A stretch of 64,000 nucleotides of DNA from an uncultured Actinomycetes bacterium (GTDB lineage Bacteria > Actinomycetota > Acidimicrobiia > IMCC26256 > PALSA-610): the NCBI GenBank assembly GCA_963812205.1, contig CAWEUJ010000004.1:984496-1048495 (forward strand), written 5' to 3'. This document shows positions 14,817-57,008 of the stretch, piece after piece. A model generated the notes under the pieces. It had not been told where the DNA came from. It did no database searches and saw only the letters and a list, made by a program, of their open reading frames with translations. The translations under genes were made by a program, and so were the position numbers. The first letter of the stretch is position 1. The number at the start of each line of letters is the position of its first letter.

Positions 14817-14820
<4 letters not shown>

Positions 14821-37937: not shown

Positions 37938-38035
37938 ACCAAGGTCTGCTGGAACGAGATCGGTATCGCTCGCCACTGCCCCAGATGTGAACCAGCCTGA
38001 CACTGAGCTTGACGCTATACGAGGTCGGCCATATC

Positions 38036-38053
38036 GTGACAGTTGAGTGTCAC
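38036..38053. promoter_or_regulatory. cluster operator motif, copy 5: GTGACA GTTGAG TGTCAC
   Basis: It lies in the divergent gap between etfBA (-) and an amidohydrolase (+). It is preceded by TTGACG (38008-38013), 17-18 nt, then TATCGT. Confidence 0.7.
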
Positions 38054-38081
38054 TTACGAACAAAAAGGATGCGAGGTAACA

Positions 38082-39353
38082 GTGGAGGAGCAGCGGCGCC
38101 AGGTCGTCATCTCGACCGACGGCCACGCGGGCGCCGACCTGTGGGACTACAAGCCTTACCTCGAGAGCCGGTACCACGAGCAGTTCGACGCTTGGGCAAG
38201 CACTTTCCACGACGCGTGGGCCGAGGACACCGATCAGGCGCGCCCGTTGAATCACCGGCTTGGAGTCGCGTCGGCGACCGCGCCGCTCAACTGGGATGCC
38301 GAGATGCGTCTCGAGTACCTCGACGGTCAGGGCATCGCCGCCGAAGTGCTCTTCCCGAATACCGCGCCGCCGTTCTACCCGTCGGGCGCCCTTACGTCGC
38401 CGGGCCCGCGTTCGAGCGAGGAGTTCGAACTGCGATTCGCGGGACTGCGCGCCCACAACCGCTGGATCGCCGATTTCTGCAGTGAGGCGCCGAACCGATG
38501 GGCCGGGTTCGCGCAGGTCTTTCTCGATGACATCGACGCCGCGGTGGCAGAAGTTCGGTGGGCGAAGGAAGCGGGCCTCCGGGGCGTTCTCCTCCCGAGC
38601 GACCACGTGCTGAAGATGGCGAACCTGTATTACCCGCACCTCGACCCGCTGTGGGCCGCTTGTGCGGAGGTGGAACTGCCCGTGCATCGACACGCGAGCT
38701 TCCCGACCGAGTCCGTGCGCGACGGTGGGAACGCGTCGGCACTTATCGGTATGCTCGAAACGCAGTTCTACATCCTCCGTTCGATAGGGCACATGATCTT
38801 GTCGGGTGCGTTCGAACGCCACCCGGACCTGATGTTTGTCATCACTGAGATCACCGCCGCGTCGGAAATCCCCGCCTATCTCATGCGGCTCGACGGCATG
38901 GCGGGGATGGGCCTCGGCGCGGGCACGCCGCTCTACGAGCACATCAAGGATGCGGCCGCTGCACTGCACCGCAAACCGAGCGAGTACTTCGCGACGAATT
39001 GCTACGTCGCGGGTCCGACTCACGATCTTCGCGCCGCCTTCGATCTCGGAACGCCGAACATCATGTGGGGTGCAGACGTTCCGCACGCCGAAGGCACGAG
39101 CCCCTTCACGCTCGAGGTTCTACGAACGACGATGCACGACCTCCCGGACACGGACATCACCGCATTGCTCTCGACCCGCGCGGCCGACGTCTACGGTTTC
39201 GACCTCGATGCGTTGCAAGCGGTGGCCGACCGGATCGGGCCGACGCTCGAGGAGATCAAGACGCCGCTCCCGCCGGAGCAGCGCCCGCGCTTTCCCGAAG
39301 ACACGCGGTGCACAGTCTTCCTGGATCGCACGGCGATGGCCGGCTCCCGGTGA
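38082..39353 (+). CDS. amidohydrolase-2 (PF04909-like) family protein
   Basis: GTG 38082 follows GCGAGG. Motifs are VVISTDGHAG, FPNT and a C-terminal IMWGADVPHAEG. The tracked start at 38043 lies inside the operator. Confidence 0.8.
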   Translation: MEEQRRQVVISTDGHAGADLWDYKPYLESRYHEQFDAWASTFHDAWAEDTDQARPLNHRLGVASATAPLNWDAEMRLEYLDGQGIAAEVLFPNTAPPFYPSGALTSPGPRSSEEFELRFAGLRAHNRWIADFCSEAPNRWAGFAQVFLDDIDAAVAEVRWAKEAGLRGVLLPSDHVLKMANLYYPHLDPLWAACAEVELPVHRHASFPTESVRDGGNASALIGMLETQFYILRSIGHMILSGAFERHPDLMFVITEITAASEIPAYLMRLDGMAGMGLGAGTPLYEHIKDAAAALHRKPSEYFATNCYVAGPTHDLRAAFDLGTPNIMWGADVPHAEGTSPFTLEVLRTTMHDLPDTDITALLSTRAADVYGFDLDALQAVADRIGPTLEEIKTPLPPEQRPRFPEDTRCTVFLDRTAMAGSR

Positions 39354-39385: not shown

Positions 39386-39426
39386 TATCTGATACCGTCG
39401 ATGCGGAACGCGTGAGGAGGACGGCG

Positions 39427-40638
39427 ATGCAATACAAGGCCATTTCCGCGGACGGCCACGTCAACGAGCCACCGAACCTGTGGGTCGAGAACCTGCCGCC
39501 GAGCATGCGCGAGCGCGGCCCTCACGTGATCGAGACACCCAAGACCAAGGGTCACGCCTGGATCATGGAGGGCCAGACGCGCCCCTCGCCGATGGGTTTC
39601 AACTCGATGTACTTCCGCTCCGCGAAGCGGTTCGACCGCGCGTCGCTCGTCGAGGGATTCAAACAGATCAAGGATCGTGGCGTCCGCTACGAAGACGTCT
39701 TCCCGGGTTCGTACGATCCGGCGGCACGTGTCGAAGAGATCACCGAAGACAAGACCGACGCCGAGGTCATCTTCAACGGGGTCGGCACGGTGTGGAACGG
39801 CATCAAGTTGTGCCCGGACAAGGAACTCTCGCTCGCCTGCTTCAAGGTCTACAACGACTGGATCGCGAGCTTTCAAGCGCACGCGCCCGAACGGTTCATC
39901 TGTAACGGCACCTTGCCGACGACCGGGTTGGACGACGCACTCGCGGAGCTGCAGCGCTGTGCAGAACTCGGGCTGCGGACTGTGCAGCTCGAGTCGTATC
40001 CCAGTGGCTCGTTCACCGATCCTTCGCCGGAAGACGATCGGTTTTGGGCAGCCGCGGTCGAGATCGGGATGCCGATCAACGTGCACACGCAGTTCTTCTT
40101 TCCCGCCGGCGACCTCGGGTCGAAGATCACGGCCGAGGGCGTGAAGGGCGGACGCGATCGCGCGAAGCGCATGGGCATCGATGTACAGGCCGGCAGCTTC
40201 CCCGTGATCCTGTGGCGCATGATGCAGTCGGGTGTCTTCGAGCGGTTCCCCGACCTGGCGTTCGTCGGCACCGAAGTCCACACGGGCTGGGTTCCGTACT
40301 ACCTCGAACAGTTCGACGATTCGGTCCTGCGTAACCGCAAGGATTGGGGCCTTCCGCTCCTGCCGAGCGAATACTTCCGACGCAACGTGTCGGTCGTGTA
40401 CATCGCCGACGAAGTCGGCGCGCACAACCGTTACGACATCGGCGTCGGCAACATCATGTGGGGCCCGGACTTCCCGCACTCCTCGTCGGCGTGGCCGGTC
40501 GACTACGAACTGGGCCGCGAGATCCTCGAACGCGCAGGGTGCACCGAAAGCGAGATCGAGCGCATCATGTGGAAGAACGCGGCCGACCTCTACAAGCTTC
40601 CGTACGACGCGCCCGGCACCGCCCGCGTCGCTGCCTGA
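39427..40638 (+). CDS. amidohydrolase-2 (PF04909-like) family protein
   Basis: ATG follows GAGGAGG. The N-terminus is AISADGHVNEP and the C-terminus is IMWGPDFPHSSS. Confidence 0.8.
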   Translation: MQYKAISADGHVNEPPNLWVENLPPSMRERGPHVIETPKTKGHAWIMEGQTRPSPMGFNSMYFRSAKRFDRASLVEGFKQIKDRGVRYEDVFPGSYDPAARVEEITEDKTDAEVIFNGVGTVWNGIKLCPDKELSLACFKVYNDWIASFQAHAPERFICNGTLPTTGLDDALAELQRCAELGLRTVQLESYPSGSFTDPSPEDDRFWAAAVEIGMPINVHTQFFFPAGDLGSKITAEGVKGGRDRAKRMGIDVQAGSFPVILWRMMQSGVFERFPDLAFVGTEVHTGWVPYYLEQFDDSVLRNRKDWGLPLLPSEYFRRNVSVVYIADEVGAHNRYDIGVGNIMWGPDFPHSSSAWPVDYELGREILERAGCTESEIERIMWKNAADLYKLPYDAPGTARVAA

Positions 40639-40639
40639 T

Positions 40640-41824
40640 ATGGCCGGGAACAACGTGTACAACCTGATCTCGTCGGAAGCGCACGTCGTCGAGCCCCCGG
40701 ACCTCTTCGAGGCCGGTCTTTCGTCGAAGCTGCGCGACCGCGCGCCGAAGTTCGTCACAAGCGACGGCGCGAGCATGTGGCACGTCGACGGCTTCGAGCC
40801 GGTGCCGCTGATGCCGACGACCGCGACCGGATCCGGGTGGCATCGGGCCGCGAACGGCCTTACGGCCACCGGCCCGGTGTCATGGGACGATGTGCTGCCG
40901 TCGATGTACGACCCGGCCGAGCGAGTCCGCGCGCAGAAGTCCGACAGCGTCGACGCCGAGTTCCTCTATCCGACGCCGAGCCTGTGGGACTCGATCAAGC
41001 AGATCGAGGACGCTGAACTTCAGTACGCGCTGGTGCGCGCGTACAACGACTGGCTCGCCGAGTTCTGCGCGTACGACTCGGCGCGCTTGTTCGGGCTCGC
41101 GAAGCTGCCGACGACGACACTCGAGGACGCCGTTGCGGAACTGTCGCGTTGCGTGACGGACCTCGGTTTTCGGGGTGCGATCCTCGACGCCTGGCCGAGC
41201 GGTGCTCGCGTGGCGGGCGACCCTTCCGACGAACCGTTCTGGGAAACGGTCAATGCGCTGGCAGTGCCGATCAGCCTTCACTACGGGTTCGGGCCGACCG
41301 AATCGACTGAGCCGCGCTCGGGCATCGCGCCTGGCTTGCGGCCGCCGATGGCCGACTCGCTCCTCCCGATGGTGGCCGGTGGTGTCTTCGACCGGTACCC
41401 CGACGTGAAGATGGTGTTCGCCCACGCCGACGCAGGCTGGGCGCTCCACTGGATGGAGTTCTTCGACATCAACTACGTGCGTCACAAGCACCTTTCGGAA
41501 TACGCGCTGCAGAACGACGACGCCGTTCCCTCCGACTACATGCGAAAGCACGCCTGGTTCACCTTCCATCAGGACCGACCGGCGGTGAAGAACCGCCACC
41601 GCCTCGGCGCCGTCCATCTGATGTGGGGAAGCCATTTCCCGTTCGAGGACTCGAACTGGCCCGACAGTCGGCAGCAGGCGATGCGCGTCACCGACGAAGT
41701 TCCGGCAGCCGACCGCCATGCGTTGTTGGCCGGCAACGTTGCCCGCCTTTACCGGCTCCCGGGATACGAGAAAGGCTTCACCGACGACGAGGTCACGTCG
41801 TTCGAGCAACTCGTGTATTTCTAG
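40640..41824 (+). CDS. amidohydrolase-2 (PF04909-like) family protein
   Basis: The start is 1 nt after the previous stop. The N-terminus is LISSEAHVVEP and the C-terminus is LMWGSHFPFEDS. Confidence 0.8.
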   Translation: MAGNNVYNLISSEAHVVEPPDLFEAGLSSKLRDRAPKFVTSDGASMWHVDGFEPVPLMPTTATGSGWHRAANGLTATGPVSWDDVLPSMYDPAERVRAQKSDSVDAEFLYPTPSLWDSIKQIEDAELQYALVRAYNDWLAEFCAYDSARLFGLAKLPTTTLEDAVAELSRCVTDLGFRGAILDAWPSGARVAGDPSDEPFWETVNALAVPISLHYGFGPTESTEPRSGIAPGLRPPMADSLLPMVAGGVFDRYPDVKMVFAHADAGWALHWMEFFDINYVRHKHLSEYALQNDDAVPSDYMRKHAWFTFHQDRPAVKNRHRLGAVHLMWGSHFPFEDSNWPDSRQQAMRVTDEVPAADRHALLAGNVARLYRLPGYEKGFTDDEVTSFEQLVYF

Positions 41825-41851: not shown

Positions 41852-42742
41852 GTGAACGCCATCGACGTCGACCCCAAGAAGCTCGAAGTGGTGGCCGCGA
41901 CCTCGGCGCACGCGTACGAGCAGGGCATTGCGCACGTCGAGGCCGAGATCGCCGCTCGAGATCCGAGCAACCTCGGTCCGCTCGTCGGCACGCTCGCATC
42001 CGCAGGCCCATACGCCTACACGCTCATCCCCGAGGTCAGGGCCGATGGTTCGGTTCGCCTCCCTATCTTCACGACGCGCGAAGAGATCCACGAGGCGTAC
42101 ACGTTCATTCGCGGCGCGAGCGATCTGCTCGAAGTCGTCGGTCTCACCGAGATTCGGGGTGCGTGGTACCTGTTCCAGGACAACATCTCGCGCGGTCGTC
42201 GCAAGGGCGGCGACGTCATCAACAACAACGAGACTCTTGCACTGTTTCCGTCGGGTGAAGGCCCCGGCATCAAGGGCGAGTTGGTGTGGCTGCGCGTGCC
42301 CCGCTCGCGCCTCGGTGCCCCCGACGAGGCTGACACCATCGACGACGACCCGTTGCTCGCGCGACGTCAGGTGCAGGAGCAGTACGCGCGCTATCTCGAC
42401 GGGATCCGCGCGAATGATCTCGCGCGTGTGCTCGACGTGCTACACGACGGTGTCGGCTCAGCGGTGCGTGACTACGTTGACGACACCGGCACCCTTGTCG
42501 AACTGACGGGGAAGGATGCGCACCGGTCGTGGTACGAGCGCTTCTTCGGGAAGTACGACGTCGTGTCGGTGCAGCCACTCTGCCAGGTAACCGAGGATTG
42601 GTACGTCTTCGCGGAGTTGCGTATCACAGTGACCCCCCGCGCCGGCGGCGACACGCTCGCCTTCCACACGGCCGAGTTCCACATGCCTGCGAAGGACGGC
42701 CGGTTCATCGCGCGCATCGGCCACGGCACGGAGCCTGCGTGA
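41852..42742 (+). CDS. tandem NTF2-like (SnoaL/ketosteroid-isomerase-like) domain protein
   Basis: 296 aa. The C-terminal half (QEQYARYLDGIRANDLARVLDVLHD...EDWYVFAELRI...KDGRFIARIG) has the cone-fold pattern, and the N-terminal half shows a similar periodicity. The function is unknown. Confidence 0.55.
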   Translation: MNAIDVDPKKLEVVAATSAHAYEQGIAHVEAEIAARDPSNLGPLVGTLASAGPYAYTLIPEVRADGSVRLPIFTTREEIHEAYTFIRGASDLLEVVGLTEIRGAWYLFQDNISRGRRKGGDVINNNETLALFPSGEGPGIKGELVWLRVPRSRLGAPDEADTIDDDPLLARRQVQEQYARYLDGIRANDLARVLDVLHDGVGSAVRDYVDDTGTLVELTGKDAHRSWYERFFGKYDVVSVQPLCQVTEDWYVFAELRITVTPRAGGDTLAFHTAEFHMPAKDGRFIARIGHGTEPA

Positions 42743-43914
42743 GCGATCCGGCACGGTTCCCGCGCGCTCAGGTCGCGATCGTGGGTATCGGCTGCACGGA
42801 GTTCACCAAGGACTCCGGCGTCGGCGTCTTCACGCTTGCTGCGCAAGCGGTGCGGGCCGCGATCGAAGACGCGGGTCTCTCCTTCGCCGATATCGACGGC
42901 CTATGCACGTTTGGTACCAACGACTCGATTCCTCCGAACGTGCTTGCGCAAGCGCTCGGCATCCAGAGTTTGAGCTACTACGTCGACCAGTTCTATGGCG
43001 GCAGCGTGGCGCTCACGATGCTCGGCCAGGCCACGATCGCCCTCTCGGCGGGCGTTGCCGACTGCATCGTTGTCTACCGCGCGCTCAACGGTCGCTCGGG
43101 CGTGCGCAAGCGTGCGGCGGGGGAGGGCAGTCCGCGGCTGCCGTGGGACATGCAGTTCAAGGTCGCGGCCGGTGTCGTCGCACCGTCGCAGGAGATCGCG
43201 ATGGCCGCGCGCGCACACATGCTCAAGTACGGCACGACCAACGAAGACCTCGGCCGCATCGCGGTGTTCAGCCGCACGCACGCGCTCGATAACGAGCGGG
43301 CAATGATGCGCACGCCGATGACGATGGACGACTACCTGGCGAGTCGCTGGATCGTCGAGCCGTTTCGTAAGTTCGATTGTTGCCTCGAAACCGACGGCGG
43401 CGTCGCGGTGGTGCTTGTTCGGGCCGATCGCGCGAAGGATCTCGCACACCGGCCGGTGCTCGTGCAGGGCGCGGCATGGGGCGGCGGAATCACAGTTGTC
43501 AACAACGGCTACCGCGAGTTGACAGAGTCGCCGGCCAAGCCGATTGCCGACCGGCTGTACGCGGCCGCGGGGCTCGGGCCGTCAGATGTCGATTTCGCGG
43601 AGCTGTACGACTGCTTCACGTACAACGTGCTCTCGCAGATCGAGGGCTACGGCTTCGCCGAGCCGGGCACGGTCCCCGGCATGCTGTCCGAGAACGCGTT
43701 CGACCGCGCGACCGGATCGCTGCCGCTGAACACCCACGGCGGGTTGCTCTCGGAGGGCTATATCCACGGAATGAACCATGTGTACGAAGCGGTACAGCAG
43801 ATCCGGGGCGAGGCAGCGCACCGACAAGTAGACCGGCACGATGTCGCGCTGGTCACGGGGCAGCTCGGGTACGTCAGCGGTTACTCCTCGGCAGCGGTGC
43901 TGGTTGGTGCGTGA
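42739..43914 (+). CDS. SCP-x/Ltp-type thiolase-superfamily protein, apparently lacking the nucleophilic Cys (possible aldolase)
   Basis: GTGA overlap with the upstream gene. The thiolase-like N-terminus is VAIVGIGCTEFTK and the C-terminus is NTHGGLLSEGYIHGMNHVYEAVQQIRGEA. The expected CxSG nucleophile region reads QFYGGSVAL. Confidence 0.75.
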   Translation: MSDPARFPRAQVAIVGIGCTEFTKDSGVGVFTLAAQAVRAAIEDAGLSFADIDGLCTFGTNDSIPPNVLAQALGIQSLSYYVDQFYGGSVALTMLGQATIALSAGVADCIVVYRALNGRSGVRKRAAGEGSPRLPWDMQFKVAAGVVAPSQEIAMAARAHMLKYGTTNEDLGRIAVFSRTHALDNERAMMRTPMTMDDYLASRWIVEPFRKFDCCLETDGGVAVVLVRADRAKDLAHRPVLVQGAAWGGGITVVNNGYRELTESPAKPIADRLYAAAGLGPSDVDFAELYDCFTYNVLSQIEGYGFAEPGTVPGMLSENAFDRATGSLPLNTHGGLLSEGYIHGMNHVYEAVQQIRGEAAHRQVDRHDVALVTGQLGYVSGYSSAAVLVGA

Positions 43915-44297
43915 TGCTTCCCGTGCCGGATCTCGACACCGAGTCGTACTGGACGGCGCTCGCGCACGGTCGGTTCGTCATGCAGCACTGTCGCGACTGT
44001 GCGCGGTGGACATGGCCAGCGAGGCCCATGTGCTCCGGCTGTCACGGTGAGAACCTTGCGTGGGAGGAGCCCAATGGAACCGGTGAGGTGTATAGCTGGA
44101 TCGTCACGCACCAGCCGTACGGACCCGACTTCCCGGTTCCATACACTGTCGCGCTCGTCCGCCTCGCCGAGCAGGACGACATCCTGATTCCCGGGCTATT
44201 CGTCGCCGACACGGGAATTCACCAGGGCCTCCGGGTGCGCGCGGTACCCCAACAAAAGACCGACGACATCGGCATTCTCACCTGGGATGTCGCATGA
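43914..44297 (+). CDS. DUF35 OB-fold / zinc-ribbon acyl-CoA-associated protein
   Basis: 127 aa. The Cys4 ribbon is CRDCARWTWPARPMCSGC, followed by the OB-fold (GEVYSWIVTH...YTVALVRL). Confidence 0.8.
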   Translation: MLPVPDLDTESYWTALAHGRFVMQHCRDCARWTWPARPMCSGCHGENLAWEEPNGTGEVYSWIVTHQPYGPDFPVPYTVALVRLAEQDDILIPGLFVADTGIHQGLRVRAVPQQKTDDIGILTWDVA

Positions 44298-45167
44298 AGC
44301 CTTCCGCGTTCGAGTATCACACGCCCGAAAGCATCAGCGACGCGGTGAAATTGCTCTCTGAGTTGGGCGACGGCGCCAAAGTGATCGCCGGCGGACAGAG
44401 CCTGGTGCCGATGATCTCCCTCCGCCTCGCATACTTCGACCACCTCGTCGACATCGGTCGGATCGCCGACCTCCGCGGCATTCGGACCGAGCCGGATGCC
44501 GTCGTCATAGGCGCGACGACGGTCGATGCGGTGGTCGAGCGCGATCCCGACCTCGCCGCGCGCGTACCGCTGCTGGCGCGCGCAACGCCGCTCGTCGGGC
44601 ACTTCCAGATCCGCAACCGGGGCACCGTCGGCGGATCGATCGCGCACGCAGACCCCGCGGCGGAATATCCGGCAGTTGCGTTGACGCTCGACGCTGACAT
44701 CGAAGCGGCATCGCCTCGCGGGTCACGGCTGATACCTGCCCGCCGCGTTCTTCGACGGCATCTGGACGACTGCGCTCGCGCCCGACGAGGTGCTCACGGG
44801 AGTGCGCTTTCCGGTGTGGAGCGGGCGCTGCGGCTTCTCAATTCGGGAGTTCGCACGACGCTTCGGTGACTTCGCCATCGCAGGCGCAACCATCGCCGTG
44901 CAGCTCGACGCCGACGACCGCATCGAACGCTGTGCGGTCGGCATGTTCGGGCTCGGCCCGACGCCATTGCGTGCGGCCGGCGCCGAAGCAGCGGCGTTGG
45001 GACAGAAGGCTGACGTCTCGGCCGCGGAGTTGGGTCGGCTCGCGGTGTCCGACCTCGATGCGATTCCGTCCGATGTGCACGGGTCTGCGGATTACCGCCG
45101 TCGCGTCGGTGCGGCGATGGTGGAACGCGCGTGGAGCGACGCGATCGGGGAGGCAATACGTGGCTGA
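44294..45167 (+). pseudogene. molybdenum hydroxylase (xanthine dehydrogenase/CoxM-type) FAD-binding subunit, +1 frameshift at 44739-44741
   Basis: The N-terminus is FEYHTPESISDAVKLL...AGGQSLVPM...RNRGTVGGSIAHADPAAEYP. After IP, the correct reading AAAFFDGIWTTALAPDEVLTGVRFPVW...SADYRRRV continues in the +1 frame to TGA 45165-45167. Confidence 0.75.
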
Positions 45168-45639
45168 GGTGGAACTGGCGCTGACCGTGAACGGCGAAGC
45201 GACGCACGCTCGCGTCGAACCCCGTGTCACGCTCGCCGACTTCCTGCGCGAGGAATGCAGTCTGACGGGTACTCACCTCGGGTGTGAACATGGGGTGTGC
45301 GGCGCATGTACGGTCCTCGTCGACGGCGCGGCTGTGCGGTCGTGCCTCATGTTTGCAGTCCAGGCGGGCGGCGCCGAGGTGACAACTATCGAGGGCATGA
45401 ACCGCGCCGACGGTGAGCTGAACCAGGTACAAGAAGCCTTCCGCGCCGAACACGGTCTGCAATGCGGGTTCTGCACGCCAGGCTTCGTCGTATCGGTCAC
45501 CGCGTTCCTTCGCGACCACCCGAATCCGAACGACGCCGAGATCAGGGAAGCCCTGTCGGGGAACCTCTGTCGCTGCACTGGATATCAGGGCATCGTCAAC
45601 GCGGTACGGCGCGCGGCCATGACCGGAGCGTCAGAATGA
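45160..45639 (+). CDS. molybdenum hydroxylase small subunit, [2Fe-2S] x2 (CoxS-type)
   Basis: The first cluster is GCEHGVCGACTV and the second is QCGFCTPGF...NLCRCTGY. GTG 45160 follows GGGGAGG. Confidence 0.9.
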   Translation: MAEVELALTVNGEATHARVEPRVTLADFLREECSLTGTHLGCEHGVCGACTVLVDGAAVRSCLMFAVQAGGAEVTTIEGMNRADGELNQVQEAFRAEHGLQCGFCTPGFVVSVTAFLRDHPNPNDAEIREALSGNLCRCTGYQGIVNAVRRAAMTGASE

Positions 45640-47954
45640 CGTTCGCTGCGCGCTTCGTCGGCCAGCGCGTCGCGCGCCACGAAGACGCTCGTCTTGTCAC
45701 GGGCCGCGGTCGTTATGTCGACGACATCAAGGTGCCGAGGACGCTGCACGCTGCGTTCGCCCGCAGCGACGTCGCGCGCGGTCGGATCGTCTCGGTCGAC
45801 ACCGCCGCGGCGGCCGCGGTGCCCGGCGTGCGCGCGGTGTTCGTGGCATCGGATTTGAACCCTCTGGTGCACGACCACCGGGTCGACGACGAGCCGCCGG
45901 GTCGCGAGCGGCCATTCCGTCTGCTCGCCGACGGTGACGTCCGCTACGTCGGCGAGCCGATCGCGATAGTGGTTGCCGATTCGAGATACCACGCCGAGGA
46001 CGCGCTCGAAGCGATTGTCATCGACATCGAGGCAGAAGAACCGGTGCTCGTTGCTGAGCGAGCGCTCGAACCTGACGCCGCGGTCGTGCATCCGACCATG
46101 GAATCGAATCTGTACAACGAGATACCGAGCGCGCCGAATCCCGAGCTCGATGATGTGCTGGCGTCGGCGCCGGTGGTACTGACCGAGACCTTCGCTCAGC
46201 ACCGCTATCTCACGGTGCCGATGGAGACGCGCGGCATCCTCGCTGACTGGGATGCGAATCGCGACGAGCTCACGATTTGGATTTCGACGCAGGGCCCGCA
46301 CGGTGCTCGCGGCCAGATGGCGCGGCTCCTCGGTCTCGACGACAGCCAGGTGCGGGTGATCATGCCCGACGTCGGCGGCGCGTTCGGCTTGAAGATGCAG
46401 CCGGGGCGGGAGGAGATGGCGACTGTTCTCGCGACGAAGGTCTTGGGTCGGCCAGTGAAGTGGATCCAAGACCGCCGCGAAAATCTCACTGCCGACGAGC
46501 ATGCGCGCGACGACCGCGCCACGGTCACGATGGCCGCCGATCGGGACGGCACATTGCTCGGGGCGAAGGTCGAGTTCCTCGAGGTCGCGGGTGCGTTCCC
46601 GAGCGCGGGTGCGAGCGCGGCCGTGTTCACGACGGTCCTGTTCCCGGGCCCGTACCGTATTCCGGCCTACAGCGGGTCGGCCCAGACCGTCTTCACGAAC
46701 ACATCAGGCCGCGGTGCCTATCGGGGTCCGTGGATGATCGAGACCGTCGCGCGAGAACTCATGGTCGACTGTGTGGCGCGTCAACTCGGCATAGATCCGT
46801 TGGAGCTCCGCCGCCGGAACGTCATCCGCGACGAAGACCTGCCCTATGCGATGCCGACCGGCATGGTCTACGACCAGATCAGCGCCGCCGCAACGCTCGA
46901 ACAGGCGGCCGAAAAGATCGGCTACGACGAGTTTCGTGCACGCCAACGGGAGTGGCGTGCCGAGGGCCGCCTCGTCGGGCTCGGCATGAGCCTGCTTGTC
47001 GAGCCGTCCGCCATCTCGTTCGGGTTCATGAGCACCGACGCCGCGACTGTTCGTATCAGCCCAAATGGAAGAGTCGACGTCGCGCACACCGGGGCCAGCC
47101 ATGGACAGAGTCTCGAGACCACGATCGCGCAAGTCGTCGCCGACGAACTCGGTGTGGATGTCGGCCAAGTGCGCGTCGTGCAGGGCGACACCGACAGCAC
47201 GCCATTCGGGCCCGGCACCGGCGGAAGCCGGAGTGCGGTGATCCTCAGCGGTGCGGCGCGCAACGCCGCACGCGAGGTGCGTGACCGGATGCTGGCAATC
47301 GTCGCGCACCAGCTCGAAGCGTCGGAGGCAGACCTCGTTCTTGAGGACGGTCGGGTGTACGTCGCGGGGACTCCTTCGAGCGCCATGACAATCACCGAGA
47401 TCGCGCACCAGGCCTACTCTGCGCCGGCAGCGTTGCCTCCGGGTCTGCCACTGGGCCTCGAAGCGCAGGTGCGATGGGCGCCGGACTCGTTCGTCACTTG
47501 GTCGAACGCTTGCCATATATGCACCTGCGAGATCGATCCCGCGACCGGAGCGGTTGACATCATGCGATATGTCGTCAGCGAGGATTGCGGCATCATGATC
47601 AACCCGAACGTTGTCGAGGGTCAGATCGCCGGCGGAGTCGTGCAGGGAATCGGCGGCGTGCTGTACGAGCACATGCCGTATGACGATGCCGGAAACCCGC
47701 TCGCAGGCACATTCATGGACTACTTGCTTCCGACCGCAGTCGAAGCGCCCGAGATCGAATACGGACACATCGAGACGCCTGCGCCGTCGAATCCGGGTGG
47801 CCACAAGGGGCTCGGTGAAGGCGGAGCGATCGCGTCGCCGCCCGCAGTCGTCAATGCGATTGCGGATGCACTTGCGCCGCTCGGTGTCGCCGTGCGTTCG
47901 CAACCGCTCGGTCCCAGCGACATCGTCGCGCTACTGGAGATTGCGGGCCGGTGA
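45636..47954 (+). CDS. molybdenum hydroxylase large subunit (molybdopterin-binding, CoxL/XdhB-type; not form I CODH)
   Basis: 772 aa. Motifs are GGAFGLK, GRGAYRGPW (generic AYRG rather than the AYxCSFR of CO dehydrogenase) and GLGEGGAIASPPAV. Confidence 0.9.
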   Translation: MTFAARFVGQRVARHEDARLVTGRGRYVDDIKVPRTLHAAFARSDVARGRIVSVDTAAAAAVPGVRAVFVASDLNPLVHDHRVDDEPPGRERPFRLLADGDVRYVGEPIAIVVADSRYHAEDALEAIVIDIEAEEPVLVAERALEPDAAVVHPTMESNLYNEIPSAPNPELDDVLASAPVVLTETFAQHRYLTVPMETRGILADWDANRDELTIWISTQGPHGARGQMARLLGLDDSQVRVIMPDVGGAFGLKMQPGREEMATVLATKVLGRPVKWIQDRRENLTADEHARDDRATVTMAADRDGTLLGAKVEFLEVAGAFPSAGASAAVFTTVLFPGPYRIPAYSGSAQTVFTNTSGRGAYRGPWMIETVARELMVDCVARQLGIDPLELRRRNVIRDEDLPYAMPTGMVYDQISAAATLEQAAEKIGYDEFRARQREWRAEGRLVGLGMSLLVEPSAISFGFMSTDAATVRISPNGRVDVAHTGASHGQSLETTIAQVVADELGVDVGQVRVVQGDTDSTPFGPGTGGSRSAVILSGAARNAAREVRDRMLAIVAHQLEASEADLVLEDGRVYVAGTPSSAMTITEIAHQAYSAPAALPPGLPLGLEAQVRWAPDSFVTWSNACHICTCEIDPATGAVDIMRYVVSEDCGIMINPNVVEGQIAGGVVQGIGGVLYEHMPYDDAGNPLAGTFMDYLLPTAVEAPEIEYGHIETPAPSNPGGHKGLGEGGAIASPPAVVNAIADALAPLGVAVRSQPLGPSDIVALLEIAGR

Positions 47955-49695: not shown

Positions 49696-50577
49696 TCAGC
49701 CTGCAGTCGCGAAACGGGGAGGTGTTGGTTTCGCGCTGCGCGGGGGAATCGGTGCGAACACCTTGCGCAGTGTGCGCACGGGACCTTCGAGCGCCACGTT
49801 GGGGCGCGCGTGCTGCACCGCGATGTTGTCCCACGCGGCGAGGTCACCGTTGCGCCACTCGTGCGTGTAGAGGAACTCGTCGCGGTACAGGTGCGAGAAC
49901 AGTTCCTCGAGCAGCGCTTCGCTTTCGGCGTTGTCGAGTCCGGCGATCTCCTGCGTCTGCTGCTGCGACACGTACAGAATCGTTTCGCCGGTGCGCGGAT
50001 GCGTGTATCCGATGGGCGTCGTGCGCATGCGCGCATTGTCGAAGGTCGAAACCAGCACGTCGGGATCGCCACCGGCACGCGCCCGCTCCTGCTCGGCGTG
50101 GCCCTGGATGGCCGACAGCGACGCGACTCTCTCGCGGAGGTCGTCGGGCAACGTCGCCCACGCGTACACGCCGCTCGCGAAGAGCGTCGGTGCGACCGGC
50201 GGTGCGACTTCGACGGCATAGAGCGACAAGATCTGGAACGTGTGATCGGACCACATCATGTCGGAGTGGTAGAGGAGGCGGCCGTACGGTGCCCCGCCCT
50301 TTTCCTCCTTGTTCGAGACGAAGAACGTTTCGCCGCCGGGCCGCCCCGAAGGCGTCTCGTCCGGCCCGAGGGGATCCATGCGGATGAGCATGCGCAGGAG
50401 GTTGGCCTGGGTGACCTCGTCGATGTCGAGGTCCCGGAACACGAGGACACCGCGCGTGTCGAACTGCTGTTGCAACATCGCGCAGGTGGAGGTATCGGCC
50501 AGGGTGGCCGCGGCATCGAGACCGATGATCTCGGTCCCGAACGCGGGGGTCAGCTCGCGGAGCTGGAGCTCGGTCAT
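49696..50577 (-). CDS. TauD/TfdA-family Fe(II)/2-oxoglutarate dioxygenase
   Basis: The HxD is in LLYHSDMMW and the distal His is in THEWRNGDLAAWDNIAVQH. 293 aa. It is a tandem paralog of the previous gene. Confidence 0.85.
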   Translation of the reverse strand: MTELQLRELTPAFGTEIIGLDAAATLADTSTCAMLQQQFDTRGVLVFRDLDIDEVTQANLLRMLIRMDPLGPDETPSGRPGGETFFVSNKEEKGGAPYGRLLYHSDMMWSDHTFQILSLYAVEVAPPVAPTLFASGVYAWATLPDDLRERVASLSAIQGHAEQERARAGGDPDVLVSTFDNARMRTTPIGYTHPRTGETILYVSQQQTQEIAGLDNAESEALLEELFSHLYRDEFLYTHEWRNGDLAAWDNIAVQHARPNVALEGPVRTLRKVFAPIPPRSAKPTPPRFATAG

Positions 50578-51698: not shown

Positions 51699-52126
51699 AA
51701 GTCGCCTTCGGTGTCGACGCGCAGACGGCGCAGAGTGGAACTCTTGAGCCGCCAGCCGTCGCATGTGCGCGCGTACTCCTCGTGGTAGTGGCCGTAGCCG
51801 CGCAGTACGTACGAACCGCCGCCGGGAAGCGGGATGTCCACGTAGTCGTTCATGGCCCAAATCCCTCTGGCTGTGTCAGGACCGGTGACGACGATCTCGG
51901 GGTTGTGCACGTGGTGGACCGTGACGGCCTCCGCGAGTGCCTGCGAGACGAAGTCGACGACTGCGTCGCGCCCCGTGTGTACCCCGCCCTCGCTGTCGAG
52001 GACGGTGTCATCGGTCAGGCAAGCGGCGTAGCCGGCCCAATCCTTGGTATCGACGCAGCGGCAGTATCTCGCCTTCAGTTGCGTGATCTCGTACACGGTC
52101 GTGAGGATTGCAATTTCATCCTGCAT
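51695..52126 (-). CDS. NTF2-like / SnoaL_4 family protein
   Basis: Start at the internal Met (MQDEIAILTTVYEITQLKARYCRCVDTKDW...). 143 aa. It overlaps the CoA-transferase stop by 11 nt. Confidence 0.7.
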   Translation of the reverse strand: MQDEIAILTTVYEITQLKARYCRCVDTKDWAGYAACLTDDTVLDSEGGVHTGRDAVVDFVSQALAEAVTVHHVHNPEIVVTGPDTARGIWAMNDYVDIPLPGGGSYVLRGYGHYHEEYARTCDGWRLKSSTLRRLRVDTEGDL

Positions 52127-54592
52127 GGGCCGCCACCGGTTCGGAGTGCCCCGCCACGACGCGGTCTTCGTGCAACTGCTCGATCTCGGCATCGCCGTAC
52201 CCGATCTCGGTGAGGAGCGCGCGGGTGTGCTCGCCGAACTCGCAGAAGGGCAAGGCGCGGCTGGGCGTGTCCGAGCAGGAAATCACCGGTGCATACCGCC
52301 AATAGGTGCCGATGCTCGGGTGGGAAACCTTCGTCATGATTTCGATTGCTTGCGCCTGTGGATCGTCATAGAGGAAGGCGAAGTGCGACAACTCGTCCGC
52401 GACCACGCAGCCGACGTTCGCGTCCAGGAGACGTCGTTCCCACTCGGACGCGGAGTGTCTGAGAAAGACGGGCTCGAGAAGCGTTTCCAGGTCGCGGCGG
52501 TTCGTTGCGCGGGCGGAGGCACTCGCAAACTTCGGGTCGGAACCAATGTGTTCGACGTCGGCCTCCGCACAGAACCGGGCGAATGCCTCGTCGTCGACAG
52601 CGGAGAACATCACCCAACGCGGATCGGGGTTGTGGGTCTTCGGACGGTCGACGTCTTGCGCAGCCGAGGCGGTCTCGTACAGCCGATGCGTTGCGCCGGT
52701 TCCGAACTGACGCGGGTCGACCGCGGGACGAGGCGGCTTGCCGGCGTACGAGAACGCGTCGTCGTAGTTGAGGTAGATGTTCGACACGATCATCGCGGAC
52801 TCGACGAGTTGCGCTTGCCCCGTCCGATGGCGTGCGAAGAGTCCAAGCATCAGCGCTGCCGCGTGTCCTGCAGCTGCCGCTGGGTCGGCACCGCTTTCGC
52901 GTAGCGGCGGATTGCCCTCGCCGGTTTGGTACGCCGTTTGACCCGCGAAGGCCGCGATCACAGGGTCGATTGCCGGCTGGCGCGCATAGGGGCCTTGCGA
53001 ACCGTATGAGGCGGCGTAGTGATACACGAGATCGGGTTTGATGGCCCGCAGGGTTTCGAAATCTATGCCCAACGACTCAGGGACGTGACCGCGGAAGCTG
53101 TGTACGAACACGTCCGCGCCGGCCACCAGACGGTTGAGAATCGCCCGGCCGCGCTCGTCCTTCAAGTTGAGTGCGATCGATTCCTTGCCCTGCATAGCGC
53201 GCACCATGTTGTTGTGACCGAGCGCGGCGACGGGGTCTCCGCCACCCCGGCCGAGCAAGCGATAGGGATCGCCGTTGATCGGCTCGATCTTGATCACCCG
53301 CGCGCCCAGCTCCGCGAGCAACGCAGTCGCGAACGGCGTGGCGTAGTAATACGCAGCCTCGACGATCGTGATGCCTTCGAGCGGCCCGGCGAGCCGTTCG
53401 CGCGTAGCTGCGGGGACCTCGACCGGCACGACCTCCGCGGCGCGCACGGCGTCGGTGTGCTCACCGGGCTCCGGTGCGGAACGCGTCACGTCCGCCGGTG
53501 CGTTCGGGAGTTTTGCCAGCGGGCCGATTTGCAGCATGCGACCGACTCGCGGGTCGTCGAACTCGACGACAAGATCGGTGGAGACCACCTGCGGATGGCG
53601 AAGCGCATCCTGCGTCGTCTGGATCACGTCGGCGCACACGTCGCCGTTGGCCAGGTACTCCTCCATCCACTCGGCTGCGGTCTTCTCCTTCATGCGCGCC
53701 TGAAGGCGCTCGACGAGTTCGACCTTGGCGTCGTCATCGGGGAATCGTGTCGGTGCGCCCTTGAACCGCTCGTCGTTCCAGATCCAATCGAAGCCGACCG
53801 CGCTGATCCACGCCGGAAAGAAGTGGGGTTCCGAAAGTGAGTGCATGATCCATTTGCCGTCGCGGCACTGGACCATCATCCCGGTGAGCGTTACCTGCGC
53901 GGATCACGGTGGTGCGCGAGCGGGTTGATCGCGTCGGACACCGTTTCCGTCGACGCCACGCGGTCGACCGGCAGCTCTTCGCCCTCGCGTAGAAGCCAGC
54001 GGACCTGCGGGTTCTGCCGGCACGTAATCGCCTGCAACATATTGACGTCGACGCGTTGGCCGCGACCGGTCAGGTCGCGCGCTCGGAGCGCGGCGAGGAT
54101 GCCCTGCACGGCGAGCATGCCGGCGAAATACGAGCCGTCGGGACACGAACGGTAGATGGGGCGTTTCCCATCGCGTTCCCAGCCCGGTTGATCGCGAAAG
54201 ATGCCGGCCTTCGCCATCACGAGCCAGTCGTCGGCCGGGACGCTCGCGTATGGCCCGGTCGTGCCGAACCCCGTCAGCTCGCAGAACACGACCGCGGGAT
54301 TGATCGACGAGAGTTGCGCGTAGTCGATCTTCTCGCTGTCGACAACGACGTCGACACCGGGCACGAGACGATGGAATTCGGCGCGCCCGCCGGCGGACGA
54401 TCGGTCGAGGGTGATGCTCTGCTTCCCGCGGTGCAGCAACGGGTAGGCGGGCAGTGTCGCGACCGGATCGGCTCCCGGCGACTCGACGCGAATGACCTCC
54501 GCGCCGAAGTCTGCGAGCACCATCGTCGCGAGCGCGCCCGCGGGGCCGCGGCTGCAGTCGAGTACTCGAATGCCCGCACACGCTCCCGGCAT
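52116..54592 (-). pseudogene. double-domain family III (CaiB/BaiF) CoA-transferase, -1 frameshift at 53894-53903
   Basis: Domain 1 is IRVLDCSRGPAGALATMVLADFGAEVIRVE...GQRVDVNM, and domain 2 is ITIVEAAYYYATPFATALLAELGARVIKIE. The two tracked ORFs (53891-54592 and 52116-53879) are consecutive parts of domain 1, and the total length is 3n+2. Confidence 0.75.
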
Positions 54593-54648
54593 GCGATCCC
54601 CTTTCCGGTCGTGGCCGTGCTCGGCATCCTACGGCGGCCGGACGTGAA

Positions 54649-54666
54649 GTGACAGTCCTCTGCCAC
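54649..54666. promoter_or_regulatory. cluster operator motif, copy 8: GTGACA GTCCTC TGCCAC
   Basis: It lies in the divergent gap: 14 nt before GTG 54680 (+) and 57 nt from ATG 54592 (-). Confidence 0.7.
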
Positions 54667-54679
54667 TAGTCTCGGCGGC

Positions 54680-55870
54680 GTGCTCGAGCCCGGAGGCGAC
54701 CTCGACGAGCTGCGGCAAGGGGTCCGCGACTGGTGCGCCGCGCACGTTCCACAGAAGTGGCGGGACGAGCAGCGCGGTGCCAGCCATGCCGACCTCGTCG
54801 CATTCATGCGGTGGTGGGGCGCGCAATTGCGCGAGGCCGGCCTCCTGACGCCGCACTGGCCGCAGGAGTGGGGTGGTGGGTTCTCGATTTCCGAACAGAT
54901 CGTGATCGCCGAGGAGCTCGCGCGGGGCGACGTACCCCGCAACGGCTTGTATCACGTCGGGATTTTCAACGTGGCGCCGACACTCGTTCACAGCGCGACC
55001 GACGCGCAGCGACGACGCTTTCTTCGCGGTATCCGCGACGGCGAAGTGTGGTGCCAAGGATTCTCGGAACCCAACGCGGGCTCCGATCTCGCGAGCCTCC
55101 AGACTCGCGCCGTGCGCGACGGCGACCGCTACGTGGTGAACGGTCAGAAGGTGTGGACGAGCTGGGCGAAGGAAGCCGACTGGTGCATGCTGCTCGTTCG
55201 CACGGATCCCGAAGCCTCGAAGCACAAGGGCATCAGCTGCCTCATCGTCGACATGCGTTCGCCCGGGATCGAGGTGCGGCCCATTACGCAGGCGTGGGGA
55301 CCGGCCGACTTCAACGAGGTGTTCTTCGACGACGTGGAGGTGCCAGTCGAAGGCCTCCTCGGCGCGGAGAACAACGGCTGGGCAGTCGCGCAGGGCACGC
55401 TCGCCGCGGAGCGGGCAATCGCGATCTTGGAAGCAACCGAGCGACTGCGCTGTAACGGCATCGAGGCCGCAGTCGCAGAAGCAGTCGATTGGCGTCTCGA
55501 AACGGGCCAACCGGCGCTCGAGGACGGCGCAGTGCGGGAGTTCCTCGCCGAGTGCTTGTCCGAGGTGTCCGCGTTGCGACACATGCTCAACGACATGATC
55601 GATGCGATCATCCGCGGCGCCGATGTCGGTGGCACGTCGTCGATCATCAAGGTGTTCTACAGCGAGCTGCTGCTCAAGCTGATGGAGTACATGACCGGCC
55701 TGCAGGGCGTCGCCGGCCAACTCGATGGTCCCGTGCTGGCGTGCGCGGGTTGGGAGACGGGCTTCTGGATGAACGACTACATCCACGCGTTCGGCTGGCT
55801 CATCGGGGGCGGCACGAACGAGATCCAGAGAAATGTGATCGCCGAGCGAATGCTCGGTCTTCCTCGATAG
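54680..55870 (+). CDS. acyl-CoA dehydrogenase (alpha-type, with GGTNEIQRN C-terminal motif)
   Basis: 396 aa. Motifs are WCQGFSEPNAGSD and IGGGTNEIQRNVIAERMLGLP. Confidence 0.85.
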   Translation: MLEPGGDLDELRQGVRDWCAAHVPQKWRDEQRGASHADLVAFMRWWGAQLREAGLLTPHWPQEWGGGFSISEQIVIAEELARGDVPRNGLYHVGIFNVAPTLVHSATDAQRRRFLRGIRDGEVWCQGFSEPNAGSDLASLQTRAVRDGDRYVVNGQKVWTSWAKEADWCMLLVRTDPEASKHKGISCLIVDMRSPGIEVRPITQAWGPADFNEVFFDDVEVPVEGLLGAENNGWAVAQGTLAAERAIAILEATERLRCNGIEAAVAEAVDWRLETGQPALEDGAVREFLAECLSEVSALRHMLNDMIDAIIRGADVGGTSSIIKVFYSELLLKLMEYMTGLQGVAGQLDGPVLACAGWETGFWMNDYIHAFGWLIGGGTNEIQRNVIAERMLGLPR

Positions 55871-55880
55871 GAGCGCGTGA

Positions 55881-57008
55881 ATGAGCCTGACCAGTGCCGA
55901 GCGAGACGAGCTTCGCTCGACCGCGCGCGACCTGCTGGGCCGGGAGAATGTGCGCACCTCCGTGGCCGAGGCGCGCGGGTTCGATCGCGATCTGTGGCGT
56001 CAGATGGTGGAGCTGGGCTGGACCACGATCCATGTGCCCGAAGGGCTCGGCGGCGCGGGGTGCGGGTACGCCGACGTCGCCGTCGTTCTCCACGAGATGG
56101 GCCGCGCCGTGACGTCTTCGCCGTTTCTCGCGAGCGCGGTGCTCGCGACCAGCGCGCTGTTGCTCGCGGCTCCCGACGGTGGGGCCCACGAGCAGCTCGG
56201 CGCGCTCGTCAGAGGCGACGCGATCGGGACCGTCGCGCTCGCGAGCTCTGACGGTTCCTACGAGCTGTCACGGGTGACGACAACCTGGCGGTCGTCGGGC
56301 GCGTCGGTCCGCCTCACGGGCGCATCCGGATTCGTGCTCGATGCCGACCTCGCCGACGTCCTGATCGTGACTGCGCTCGACGGCGACGGAACCGTTGCCC
56401 TCTTCGCGGTCGACGGTCGCGCGCCGGGCGTCCGAATTGAACGAGCCCCGACGGTTGACCAAACCCGACGCCTCTTCAGCGTGACGTTCGACGACGTTGA
56501 GGTCGCGACCGAGCGCATGCTCTGCGACCCGGGTCGACAAACTGAAGAGCTGCTCGACGACGTGCTCTCCATCGGCGCCATCGCGTCGTCGTGCGACGCG
56601 GTCGGCGTCGCGGAGCGGGCACTCGACGGCGCGGCCGAGTATGCCAAGACACGTGTGCAGTTCGGCAAGCCGATCGGATCGTTTCAGGCCGTGAAGCACC
56701 ACTGCGCCAACATGGCCATCGCGGTCGAGGCAAGCCGGGCCGCGGTACGCGGCGCGACGGAGGCACTTGATGGCGACCGCGCGGACTGGGCGCGGAACGC
56801 GGCAGCAACCGCGTCCTACGTGGGGCCTGCGTGCTCCCACGCGTGTTCGCTCGCATTGCTCGTCCACGGCGGCATCGGATTCACATGGGAACACGAGTCG
56901 CACCTCTATCTGAAACGGGCGAAACTCGACGAAGTGTTGTTCGGCACGCCGTCGTGGCATCGTCGCCGCCTCGCCGACGCCGTCTTTCCCGCCTTGGCGG
57001 CGTCGTGA
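55881..57008 (+). CDS. acyl-CoA dehydrogenase-family protein (beta-type, C-terminal GGTxEIxRN motif absent)
   Basis: 375 aa with the ACAD fold (TRVQFGKPIGSFQAVKHHCANM). The C-terminus reads LFGTPSWHRRRLADAVF. Confidence 0.8.
   Translation: MSLTSAERDELRSTARDLLGRENVRTSVAEARGFDRDLWRQMVELGWTTIHVPEGLGGAGCGYADVAVVLHEMGRAVTSSPFLASAVLATSALLLAAPDGGAHEQLGALVRGDAIGTVALASSDGSYELSRVTTTWRSSGASVRLTGASGFVLDADLADVLIVTALDGDGTVALFAVDGRAPGVRIERAPTVDQTRRLFSVTFDDVEVATERMLCDPGRQTEELLDDVLSIGAIASSCDAVGVAERALDGAAEYAKTRVQFGKPIGSFQAVKHHCANMAIAVEASRAAVRGATEALDGDRADWARNAAATASYVGPACSHACSLALLVHGGIGFTWEHESHLYLKRAKLDEVLFGTPSWHRRRLADAVFPALAAS

Follow-up and report, generated by a model that had tools for sequence, protein, structure and literature searches.

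To our knowledge, reaction mechanisms have been defined for only two thiolase-fold aldolases, Ltp2 and Sal, both of which are steroid enzymes. Here we compare these systems with a pair of adjacent genes in a 64,000-nucleotide stretch of DNA (the window; contig CAWEUJ010000004.1, positions 984,496 to 1,048,495 of the forward strand) from an uncultured bacterium of the class Acidimicrobiia. The first gene encodes an Ltp2-like thiolase-fold protein and the second a free-standing DUF35 protein, and their sequences make it likely that the two together form a retro-aldolase with a bulky 3-hydroxyacyl-CoA as its substrate.

In the Ltp2 of Thermomonospora curvata (TcLtp2), the catalytic base is Tyr294 of a conserved YDHF motif, the acid is Tyr344 and His296 lies in a proposed oxyanion hole (PMC12329534). 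The Sal aldolase of Comamonas testosteroni (CtSal) has its catalytic residues Tyr302 and Cys304 within a YDCY motif and a Gln at the Tyr344 position, while the corresponding motif is YDCF in the Trypanosoma brucei protein TbSLP and HDCF in SCP2 thiolases (PMC12329534). The DUF35 domain is part of a MaoC hydratase in ChsH2, Shy and AedL, the partners of Ltp2, Sal and AedK, respectively. In M. neoaurum, ChsH4 is a stand-alone, 138-residue DUF35 protein whose gene lies beside the aldolase gene atf1, and it is genetically required for the HBC branch of sterol degradation (PMC10398937). Atf1-ChsH4 is therefore a genetic precedent for a thiolase-fold aldolase whose DUF35 partner is free-standing, and the arrangement is not new (PMC10398937).

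The gene pair in the window has the following structure:

42739..43914, + strand, Ltp2-like thiolase-fold protein of the SCP-x type, 391 residues, GTG start
43914..44297, + strand, free-standing DUF35 protein, 127 residues, ATG start, combining a Cys4 zinc ribbon with an OB fold

An earlier note on this DNA had placed a thiolase-superfamily protein and a DUF35 partner at 42739-44297, and the two open reading frames (ORFs) fit these coordinates exactly. The genes meet at a TGATG, where the ATG of the DUF35 gene at 43914 uses the A of the upstream TGA, so that one base is shared; the G+C content of the window is ~66%. The Ltp2-like protein is identical over its full length (100%) to the database protein P0001, with homologues of 390-394 residues. 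More than 120 cluster representatives of the Ltp2-like protein, at 76-91% identity, are 377-412 residues long, and the start assigned at 42739 is therefore sound.

We found that both proteins have their best match in the Protein Data Bank (PDB) in the same complex. The Ltp2-like protein matches TcLtp2 (6OK1_A) with an E-value of 3e-81, a similarity far above chance, at 42.9% identity by BLASTP, and the DUF35 protein matches the DUF35 domain of ChsH2 in that structure (6OK1_B, 4.8e-14), followed by the DUF35 domain of Shy in 9MYR. Weaker matches of the Ltp2-like protein are an uncharacterised Sphaerobacter 'thiolase' (4U4E) and then the Comamonas Sal aldolase (9MYR_A, 3.7e-43), so that the CtSal-ShyDUF35 structure is also matched by both proteins (3.7e-43 and 4.4e-8). 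True SCP2 thiolases rank lower, with the zebrafish enzyme 6HSJ at 8e-29 over a full-length alignment. Together with a Thiolase_C_1 domain (PF22691, 2.5e-35 in Pfam), this alignment places the Ltp2-like protein in the SCP-x/SCP2 branch of the thiolase superfamily. For the DUF35 protein, Pfam reports zf-ChsH2 (PF12172, 3.4e-13) and OB_ChsH2_C (PF01796, 6.7e-12) and no further domain; its zinc ribbon is rubredoxin-like, and the ligands CRDC...CSGC (C-x2-C...C-x2-C) align with those of the ChsH2 DUF35 domain.

Among NCBIfam models, the top match of the Ltp2-like protein is the lipid-transfer-protein model PRK07855, which we take to be the Ltp2-type model (Rv3540c), with 362.7 bits at a cutoff of 469. 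The BbsB model scores 89 bits against the Ltp2-like protein at a cutoff of 750, and BbsA scores 17 bits at a cutoff of 250. Judged by its score below the PRK07855 cutoff, its 42.9% identity to TcLtp2 and its own clade in a rough neighbour-joining (NJ) tree, the Ltp2-like protein is outside the strict Ltp2 family. The resemblance to Ltp2-type aldolases drawn in the earlier note thus stands as far as the shared best match in 6OK1, the top NCBIfam model and the two catalytic Tyr residues described below are concerned; it does not extend to membership of the strict Ltp2 family or to a plain Ltp2 active site.

We then read residue equivalences from HMMER alignments to solved structures (6OK1 and 6HSJ). 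The nucleophilic Cys of the thiolase (NNC-STGSTALFM in 6HSJ) aligns with Phe85 (DQF-YGGSVALTM), where TcLtp2 has Gly, and in the alignment to 6HSJ the strand-helix junction in the N-terminal part of the Ltp2-like protein contains no Cys anywhere. The His of the thiolase HDCF motif becomes Tyr290 (ELHDCF versus ELYDCF), and the His of the thiolase GH loop becomes Tyr341 (GGLISKGHPLG versus GGLLSEGYIHG), which sits in SEGYIHG and aligns with EAYIHG of TcLtp2. By position count along the 6OK1 alignment, Tyr290 and Tyr341 correspond in TcLtp2 to Tyr294 and Tyr344. The Ltp2-like protein keeps the acid/base Cys of the xDCx motif of thiolases as Cys292 in the motif YDCF, and this Cys occupies the position of His296 in the YDHF motif of TcLtp2. 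The Tyr and Cys of the Sal type (Tyr302 and Cys304 in CtSal) are both present as Tyr290 and Cys292, with Phe, not Tyr, as the fourth motif residue.

Consequently, the proposal in the earlier note that the catalytic Cys and His had been lost is borne out for the nucleophilic Cys and for both His residues, including the GH His replaced by Tyr in SEGYIHG, but the xDCx Cys is retained. The note had also feared that the Cys of GIGCTEF or of CIVVYRA was a nucleophile misplaced by eye, and both align elsewhere: Cys19 (GIGCTEF) aligns with the Met of GVGMTKF in the SCP2 thiolase, and Cys109 (ADCIVVY) with the non-catalytic Cys of ADCVLAL. The predicted active site is a Sal/Ltp2 hybrid that combines the Tyr pair of Ltp2 with a Cys of the Sal/SLP type. 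By this alignment the Ltp2-like protein cannot be expected to carry out thiolysis, because its nucleophilic Cys is replaced by Phe85.

The residues of this putative active site are conserved. In 121 orthologues with at least 76% identity, Tyr290, Asp291, Cys292, Phe293, Tyr341 and His343 are invariant, and position 85 is Phe, His, Tyr or Asn and never Cys. In the same set 141 of 391 positions are invariant, and invariance on its own is therefore weak evidence. To describe more distant relatives, we scanned 1.84 billion proteins in full with HMMER and aligned 148 sequences. Of the 150 best representatives of clusters at 50% identity, 133 were included, together with 10 close orthologues, the protein from the window and 4 PDB references. 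The Tyr341 position is Tyr in 91 of the 148. The combination YDCF/Tyr is the most frequent (34/148), and among the nearest sequence clusters the canonical YDHF/Tyr state of Ltp2 is in the minority (8/148). In the rough NJ tree, which has no support values and a sample biased toward the query, the window clade falls among YDCF/Tyr proteins, apart from both the TcLtp2 clade and CtSal.

The close relatives come from metagenome-assembled genomes (MAGs) of Acidimicrobiia (Microthrixaceae, Acidimicrobiaceae), many of them from one large soil/wastewater MAG series, and the window protein belongs to an abundant, uncharacterised clade that occurs mainly in uncultured Acidimicrobiia from soil and wastewater. 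Two cultured Alphaproteobacteria, Novosphingobium sp. CF614 (locus L013) and Sphingomonas sp. YR710 (L014), carry the pair at 71-74% identity (10001-11577). Because orthologues this similar occur in Novosphingobium and Sphingomonas, the distribution suggests that the pair moved horizontally between Acidimicrobiia and sphingomonads. In both strains the pair adjoins CoxMSL-type genes, a cytochrome P450 gene and a TauD gene.

The separation of the DUF35 protein from any hydratase is a general property of these loci. We examined 27 related loci that have sequence downstream of the Ltp2-like gene, drawn from metagenome contigs, GTDB species representatives and one Rhodococcus plasmid, with identities from 83% down to 38%. 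In 27 of 27, a separate DUF35 ORF of 129-155 residues lies directly 3′ of the Ltp2-like gene, and in most of them the stop and start overlap by 1 or 4 bases. A MaoC fusion of DUF35 is excluded in all 27, because the aldolase-like gene sits upstream and the ORF stops ~400 nucleotides downstream. The window pair accordingly departs from the ChsH2-style placement of DUF35 on a MaoC hydratase, and the earlier description of its 127-residue DUF35 protein as free-standing, unlike the fused partner of Ltp2, holds for the window and for its relatives alike.

Compared with the Ltp2-ChsH2(DUF35) system (6OK1; Rv3540c/Rv3542c in Mycobacterium tuberculosis), the locus shares a thiolase fold with a Tyr pair and without the nucleophilic Cys, a Cys4 zinc-ribbon DUF35 partner, and a cluster containing a hot-dog hydratase and two acyl-CoA dehydrogenase (ACAD) genes that resemble heteromeric subunits. 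It differs in its motif (YDCF versus YDHF), in a DUF35 that forms a protein of its own (127 residues) instead of the C-terminal part of a MaoC hydratase, in a hydratase unrelated in sequence to ChsH1/H2, and in a context that is no recognisable steroid cluster. The Sal-Shy bile-acid C5 side-chain aldolase of Comamonas testosteroni (9MYR) is likewise a thiolase-fold protein with a DUF35 partner and has the Tyr and Cys of a YDC(Y/F) motif. However, Sal is only 31.5% identical, falls in another NJ group and carries Gln at the position of Tyr341, while the DUF35 of Shy is fused to a MaoC domain and has a Cys3His zinc site.

The same order of two genes is found in Atf1-ChsH4 of the M. neoaurum HBC operon, where an aldolase gene is followed by a stand-alone DUF35 gene, and a role as a 'molecular staple' has been proposed for ChsH4 (PMC10398937). 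By its published description that pair is related to Sal-Shy, whereas the window protein is nearest to Ltp2; a steroid C5 side-chain intermediate is the substrate of Atf1. TbSLP (5AB4) shares YDCF and the missing nucleophilic Cys but is eukaryotic and distant (E-value 4.5e-15). BbsAB and the archaeal thiolase/HMGCS/DUF35 complex share the SCP-x-type fold and a free-standing DUF35 subunit, but they keep the Cys/His machinery and are much weaker matches (7PXP, 5.5e-22; 6ESQ, 2e-21). Another possible relative is DitF, which belongs to the abietane dit cluster and is described as sterol-carrier-like (PMC13063091).

From the gene structures, homology, aligned residues and synteny we infer an activity, a quaternary structure, an order of steps and a substrate class, as follows. 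By analogy with 6OK1 and 9MYR, two copies of the Ltp2-like protein would probably form a dimer at the centre of the complex, flanked on each side by one DUF35 protein. Tyr290 of the YDCF motif would deprotonate the beta-hydroxyl group of a 3-hydroxyacyl-CoA, the bond between C-alpha and C-beta would break to release a ketone or aldehyde, and the enolate of the remaining acyl-CoA would be protonated by Tyr341 (the Ltp2-type acid) and/or by Cys292 (the Sal-type acid) to give acetyl- or propionyl-CoA. The DUF35 protein would stabilise the dimer, solubilise the aldolase and help to form the substrate cleft. Because DUF35 is not fused to a hydratase, this aldolase would work without a covalent tether to the preceding enzyme.

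We now turn to the genes that surround the pair. Between 38043 and 47954, all genes are on the + strand with very small gaps or overlaps. Several neighbours belong to the Amidohydro_2 family, in which amidohydrolase-related dinuclear oxygenases (AROs), including DitZ and PtmU3, carry the motifs D-x-H and D-x-P-H-x-D/E (PMC13154177). The neighbouring features are:

38043..39353, + strand, Amidohydro_2 paralogue with the canonical ARO motifs DGH and DVPHAE; first gene of the + strand run
39403..40638 (start approximate), + strand, DitZ/PtmU3-type, ARO-like Amidohydro_2 protein with DGH and the variant DFPHSS
40640..41824, + strand, second DitZ/PtmU3-like Amidohydro_2 protein, with the degenerate metal motifs EAH and HFPFED
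41852..42742, + strand, tandem NTF2/SnoaL-like protein, 296 residues; its stop overlaps the Ltp2-like start (GTGA)
44294..47954, + strand, CoxM/CoxS/CoxL-type molybdenum hydroxylase genes; the coxM start overlaps the DUF35 stop
49696..50577, - strand, TauD/TfdA-family Fe(II)/2-oxoglutarate dioxygenase, which adjoins DUF35 in several related loci
52116..54628, - strand, family III CoA-transferase, two ORFs
54653..57008, + strand, two adjacent ACAD genes, one PimC-like and one IpdE2/PimD-like, resembling heteromeric large and small subunits
57005..58123, + strand, putative enoyl-CoA hydratase of the hot-dog type (MaoC/FAS1_DH), 372 residues, without DUF35
58124-60364, + strand, further family III CoA-transferase

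Synteny was established by tblastn of the window proteins against 29 fetched loci (L numbers). The Acidimicrobiia cluster reads P450, crotonase (- strand), DitZ-like, DitZ/PtmU3-like, tandem NTF2, Ltp2-like and DUF35, and continues with (CoxM / TauD on the - strand / cupin), two CoA-transferase genes (- strand), two ACAD genes, the MaoC-like gene and a CoA-transferase gene. It is contiguous in L010, L015, L016, L018 and L019, and in L011 up to the end of the locus at the MaoC-like gene. The ACAD pair is syntenic with the Ltp2-like/DUF35 pair in these six loci, and the hot-dog gene directly follows the ACAD pair in six. With ACADs and a MaoC-like protein in synteny, the cluster holds the same enzyme classes as the ChsE1E2, ChsH1H2 and Ltp2 proteins of the igr system; dehydrogenase, hydratase and aldolase functions would all be encoded, with the DUF35 detached. 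In the window, the likely hydratase and dehydrogenase genes lie 10-14 kb downstream of the pair, and in several other genomes they adjoin it. Cox-type genes stand beside the pair in seven loci (L003/L007, L006, L008, L011, L013, L014), two of them alphaproteobacterial. Only the Ltp2-like/DUF35 pair is universal, and most neighbours are missing in L001, L009 and L012.

The hot-dog protein matches FAS1_DH_region at 1.5e-12 and MaoC_dehydratas at 1.3e-4, which is below the cutoff, and a search of the PDB for structure similarity to ChsH1, ChsH2 or Shy found none, the sole match being a weak one to Rv0637. More widely, the window is a catabolic island, in which the three family III CoA-transferase genes, two ACAD genes and hot-dog protein are accompanied by a further two Amidohydro_2 genes, a flavin monooxygenase of the Baeyer-Villiger type, an SGL lactonase, a P450, a thioesterase, four crotonases, an electron transfer flavoprotein (ETF), two TauD dioxygenases, a cupin and short-chain dehydrogenases/reductases (SDRs). 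The best PDB matches of the P450 include CYP130, a reconstructed CYP125 ancestor and a vitamin D3 hydroxylase.

DitZ is a diiron diterpenoid hydroxylase. The 39403-40638 protein matches DitZ (8UYR) at 3.5e-38 and has an 84-88% identical neighbour in most Acidimicrobiia loci, and the 40640-41824 protein matches PtmU3 (6OMP) at 4.9e-31 and DitZ at 1.7e-27. For these two proteins we rejected a LigW/ACMSD-type decarboxylase or hydrolase assignment, as DitZ and PtmU3 are the better matches by 15-25 orders of magnitude. Altogether, the window encodes five Amidohydro_2 paralogues (24711-26162, 31195-32454, 38043-39353, 39403-40638 and 40640-41824). Reading the translations by eye, we found both ARO motifs in those at 38043-39353, 24711-26162 and 31195-32454. 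An oxygenase function of the two proteins adjoining the pair is uncertain, because the full D-x-P-H-x-D/E signature is missing in both, and such variant and degenerate neighbours recall catalytic/non-catalytic pairs such as AibH1H2.

In 11 related loci the NTF2-like gene is the immediate upstream neighbour of the Ltp2-like gene, and ~30 apparently shared contigs between the two match lists suggest that this co-occurrence is wider. The NTF2-like protein has no sequence match in the PDB. Its AlphaFold2 model (pLDDT 90.5) shows two NTF2 folds in tandem. The folds closest to this model belong to polyether epoxide hydrolases (Lsd19 and MonBI/BII) and to limonene epoxide hydrolase. The TM-scores are ~0.7-0.84 per domain (target-normalised) and ~0.4 for the whole chain, and the similarity is therefore at the level of the fold only.

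These neighbours allow the putative aldolase to be placed in a pathway. A family III CoA-transferase would activate a bulky carboxylic acid, probably alicyclic or terpenoid-like, the heteromeric acyl-CoA dehydrogenase would desaturate the acyl-CoA, the MaoC-like hydratase or a crotonase would hydrate it, and the aldolase would remove a C2 or C3 acyl-CoA unit where the thiolase route is blocked. The DitZ/PtmU3-like neighbours, the P450 resembling CYP125 and CYP130, and the Baeyer-Villiger monooxygenase and lactonase hint at a terpenoid-like or other alicyclic acid as the substrate. The conserved cluster would mark an uncharacterised catabolic pathway for bulky carboxylic acids.

Two further ideas extend this proposal. 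The YDCF/Tyr proteins, with both candidate proton donors, may be intermediate or ancestral between the Sal type (Tyr/Cys) and the Ltp2 type (Tyr/Tyr). A DitZ/PtmU3-like oxygenase may also install the beta-hydroxyl on an alpha-blocked acyl-CoA, which the aldolase with its stand-alone DUF35 would then cleave at the C-C bond. PtmU3 installs such a hydroxyl at C-5 before A-ring cleavage in platensimycin biosynthesis. That both ideas hold together in the Acidimicrobiia, an intermediate or ancestral active site and an oxygenase-primed retro-aldol route, is a long shot. If true, the second idea would amount to a catabolic, oxygenase-primed retro-aldol route for ring or side-chain cleavage of diterpenoid-like acids.

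Several observations weigh against a retro-aldolase of this kind. The geometry of the active site is based on an alignment at 42.9% identity, and the AlphaFold2 model of the Ltp2-like protein was discarded (pLDDT 46, pTM 0.47), its alignment of 38 orthologues with at least 77% identity being too shallow. His296 of TcLtp2, a residue of the proposed oxyanion hole, is replaced by Cys, and the third motif position is spread among the 148 aligned sequences (Cys 49, Ala 18, Gly 12, His 11, Asn 9), which leaves the oxyanion hole and the proton donor uncertain. The top NCBIfam model is matched below its cutoff. The window's hot-dog gene is not adjacent to the pair, its product resembles MaoC weakly, and the N-terminal hydratase motif, read by eye as GDDNPLY, has Tyr where His is expected. 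Finally, ACAD and hydratase genes are not nearby in L001, L009 and L012-L014.

Three rival explanations must be set against the retro-aldolase, and each is less likely than it. The Ltp2-like protein might be a true Ltp2 orthologue that removes the last C3 unit of a steroid side chain as propionyl-CoA, and the cluster a steroid catabolic one, as both catalytic Tyr residues, the Ltp2-type nearest structure and NCBIfam model, the heteromeric ACAD genes with their IpdE2-like subunit and a P450 resembling CYP130, the CYP125 ancestor and vitamin D3 hydroxylase would suggest. We regard this as quite unlikely, given a score below the PRK07855 cutoff, 42.9% identity, a YDCF motif and a place apart from the YDHF/Tyr clade in the rough NJ tree, together with an unfused DUF35 and a hydratase without detectable structure similarity to ChsH1/ChsH2. 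Moreover, the ~34 genes scanned between 24.7 and 62.1 kb (the first 24.7 kb were unscanned) included none recognisable as KshA, KstD or Hsa-type, and the nearest neighbours are DitZ/PtmU3-like, a type linked to diterpenoids. The Phe at the nucleophile position (Phe, His, Tyr or Asn in orthologues), the Tyr at both His positions and the non-catalytic positions of Cys19 and Cys109 argue against a different proposal, that the protein is a thiolase or another acyl-enzyme catalyst, such as a BbsAB-type enzyme or a PhlC-type acyltransferase, that uses another Cys. Such a catalyst would be in keeping with the thiolase fold, the retained xDCx Cys292 and the stand-alone DUF35 typical of BbsAB, PhlBC and the archaeal thiolase/HMGCS complex, all of which are among the weaker PDB matches. 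However, BbsB scores 89 against a cutoff of 750 bits, 7PXP, 6ESQ and PhlC are far weaker matches than Ltp2, and CtSal, which shares this Cys and likewise lacks a nucleophile, is described as incapable of thiolysis (PMC12329534); an acyl-enzyme mechanism is very improbable.

The pair could also catalyse another reaction or none: it might decarboxylate acyl- or malonyl-CoA, carry out an aldol condensation in the synthetic direction, or serve neighbouring enzymes such as the DitZ-like or NTF2-like proteins as a scaffold without catalytic activity. TbSLP, which shares the YDCF motif, has very slow malonyl-CoA decarboxylation as its only reported activity, although SLPs have since been proposed to be aldolases (PMC12329534). 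Translational coupling to the NTF2-like protein and the variable third motif position in relatives would fit this reading, whereas the invariance of the putative catalytic residues in 121 orthologues argues for catalysis, and the catabolic context of CoA-transferases, ACADs, hydratases and oxygenases argues against a biosynthetic condensation. We consider this third alternative unlikely. If the pair is a retro-aldolase, its combination of a Sal-type Cys and an Ltp2-type second Tyr in one protein makes it a natural test case for the route from Sal-like to Ltp2-like enzymes that has been proposed (PMC12329534). The orthologues in the cultured strains CF614 and YR710 offer tractable experimental hosts, and aldolases of this kind are of interest as biocatalysts that act on C-C bonds.

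Additional features of the window and of related loci were recorded alongside the main analysis. On the plasmid of Rhodococcus sp. DMU1 (NZ_CP050953.1; L004, 7722-13863), a homologue with 48.9% identity (tblastn) and a YDAF/Tyr site stands in the order phytanoyl-CoA-dioxygenase-family gene, Ltp2-like gene, unannotated stand-alone DUF35 ORF (10146-10562), cupin and CoA-transferase; oxygenases thus recur next to such pairs. Within the window, three consecutive genes at 26237-29790 encode a Baeyer-Villiger-type flavin monooxygenase, a lactonase resembling SMP-30/gluconolactonase and an SDR, which is a typical set for the ring opening of cyclic ketones. This set could act on the ketone released by the aldolase, and it is not conserved beside the pair elsewhere. 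A branched-chain-amino-acid-type ATP-binding cassette (ABC) transporter, including a 925-residue fused permease/ATPase ORF, and a methylmalonyl-CoA-mutase-like gene occupy 14062-18956 and 18884-20695, upstream of the catabolic genes; both were assigned solely by inspection of their translations. In L001, the pair is directly preceded by an ABC transporter of a similar kind.

Two genes in the window have interrupted reading frames. The coxM-like gene for the FAD subunit (44294-45167) is split over two frames by an apparent +1 shift near 44738-44750, seemingly from one extra C in GCCCGCCGCG, while its orthologue in L003 (11531-12406) is intact and encodes 291 residues; either the split arose in the assembly or the gene is a pseudogene. 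On the minus strand at 36173-38000, the ETF beta frame switches near 37665-37675 at ACCGGATCC (GVLITG / DPAFAGSDTLATA) through an apparent insertion of 1 nucleotide, and the remaining ETF-beta and ETF-alpha read as one frame of 500 residues. The occurrence of two frameshifts within 64 kb suggests that the assembly contains homopolymer errors.

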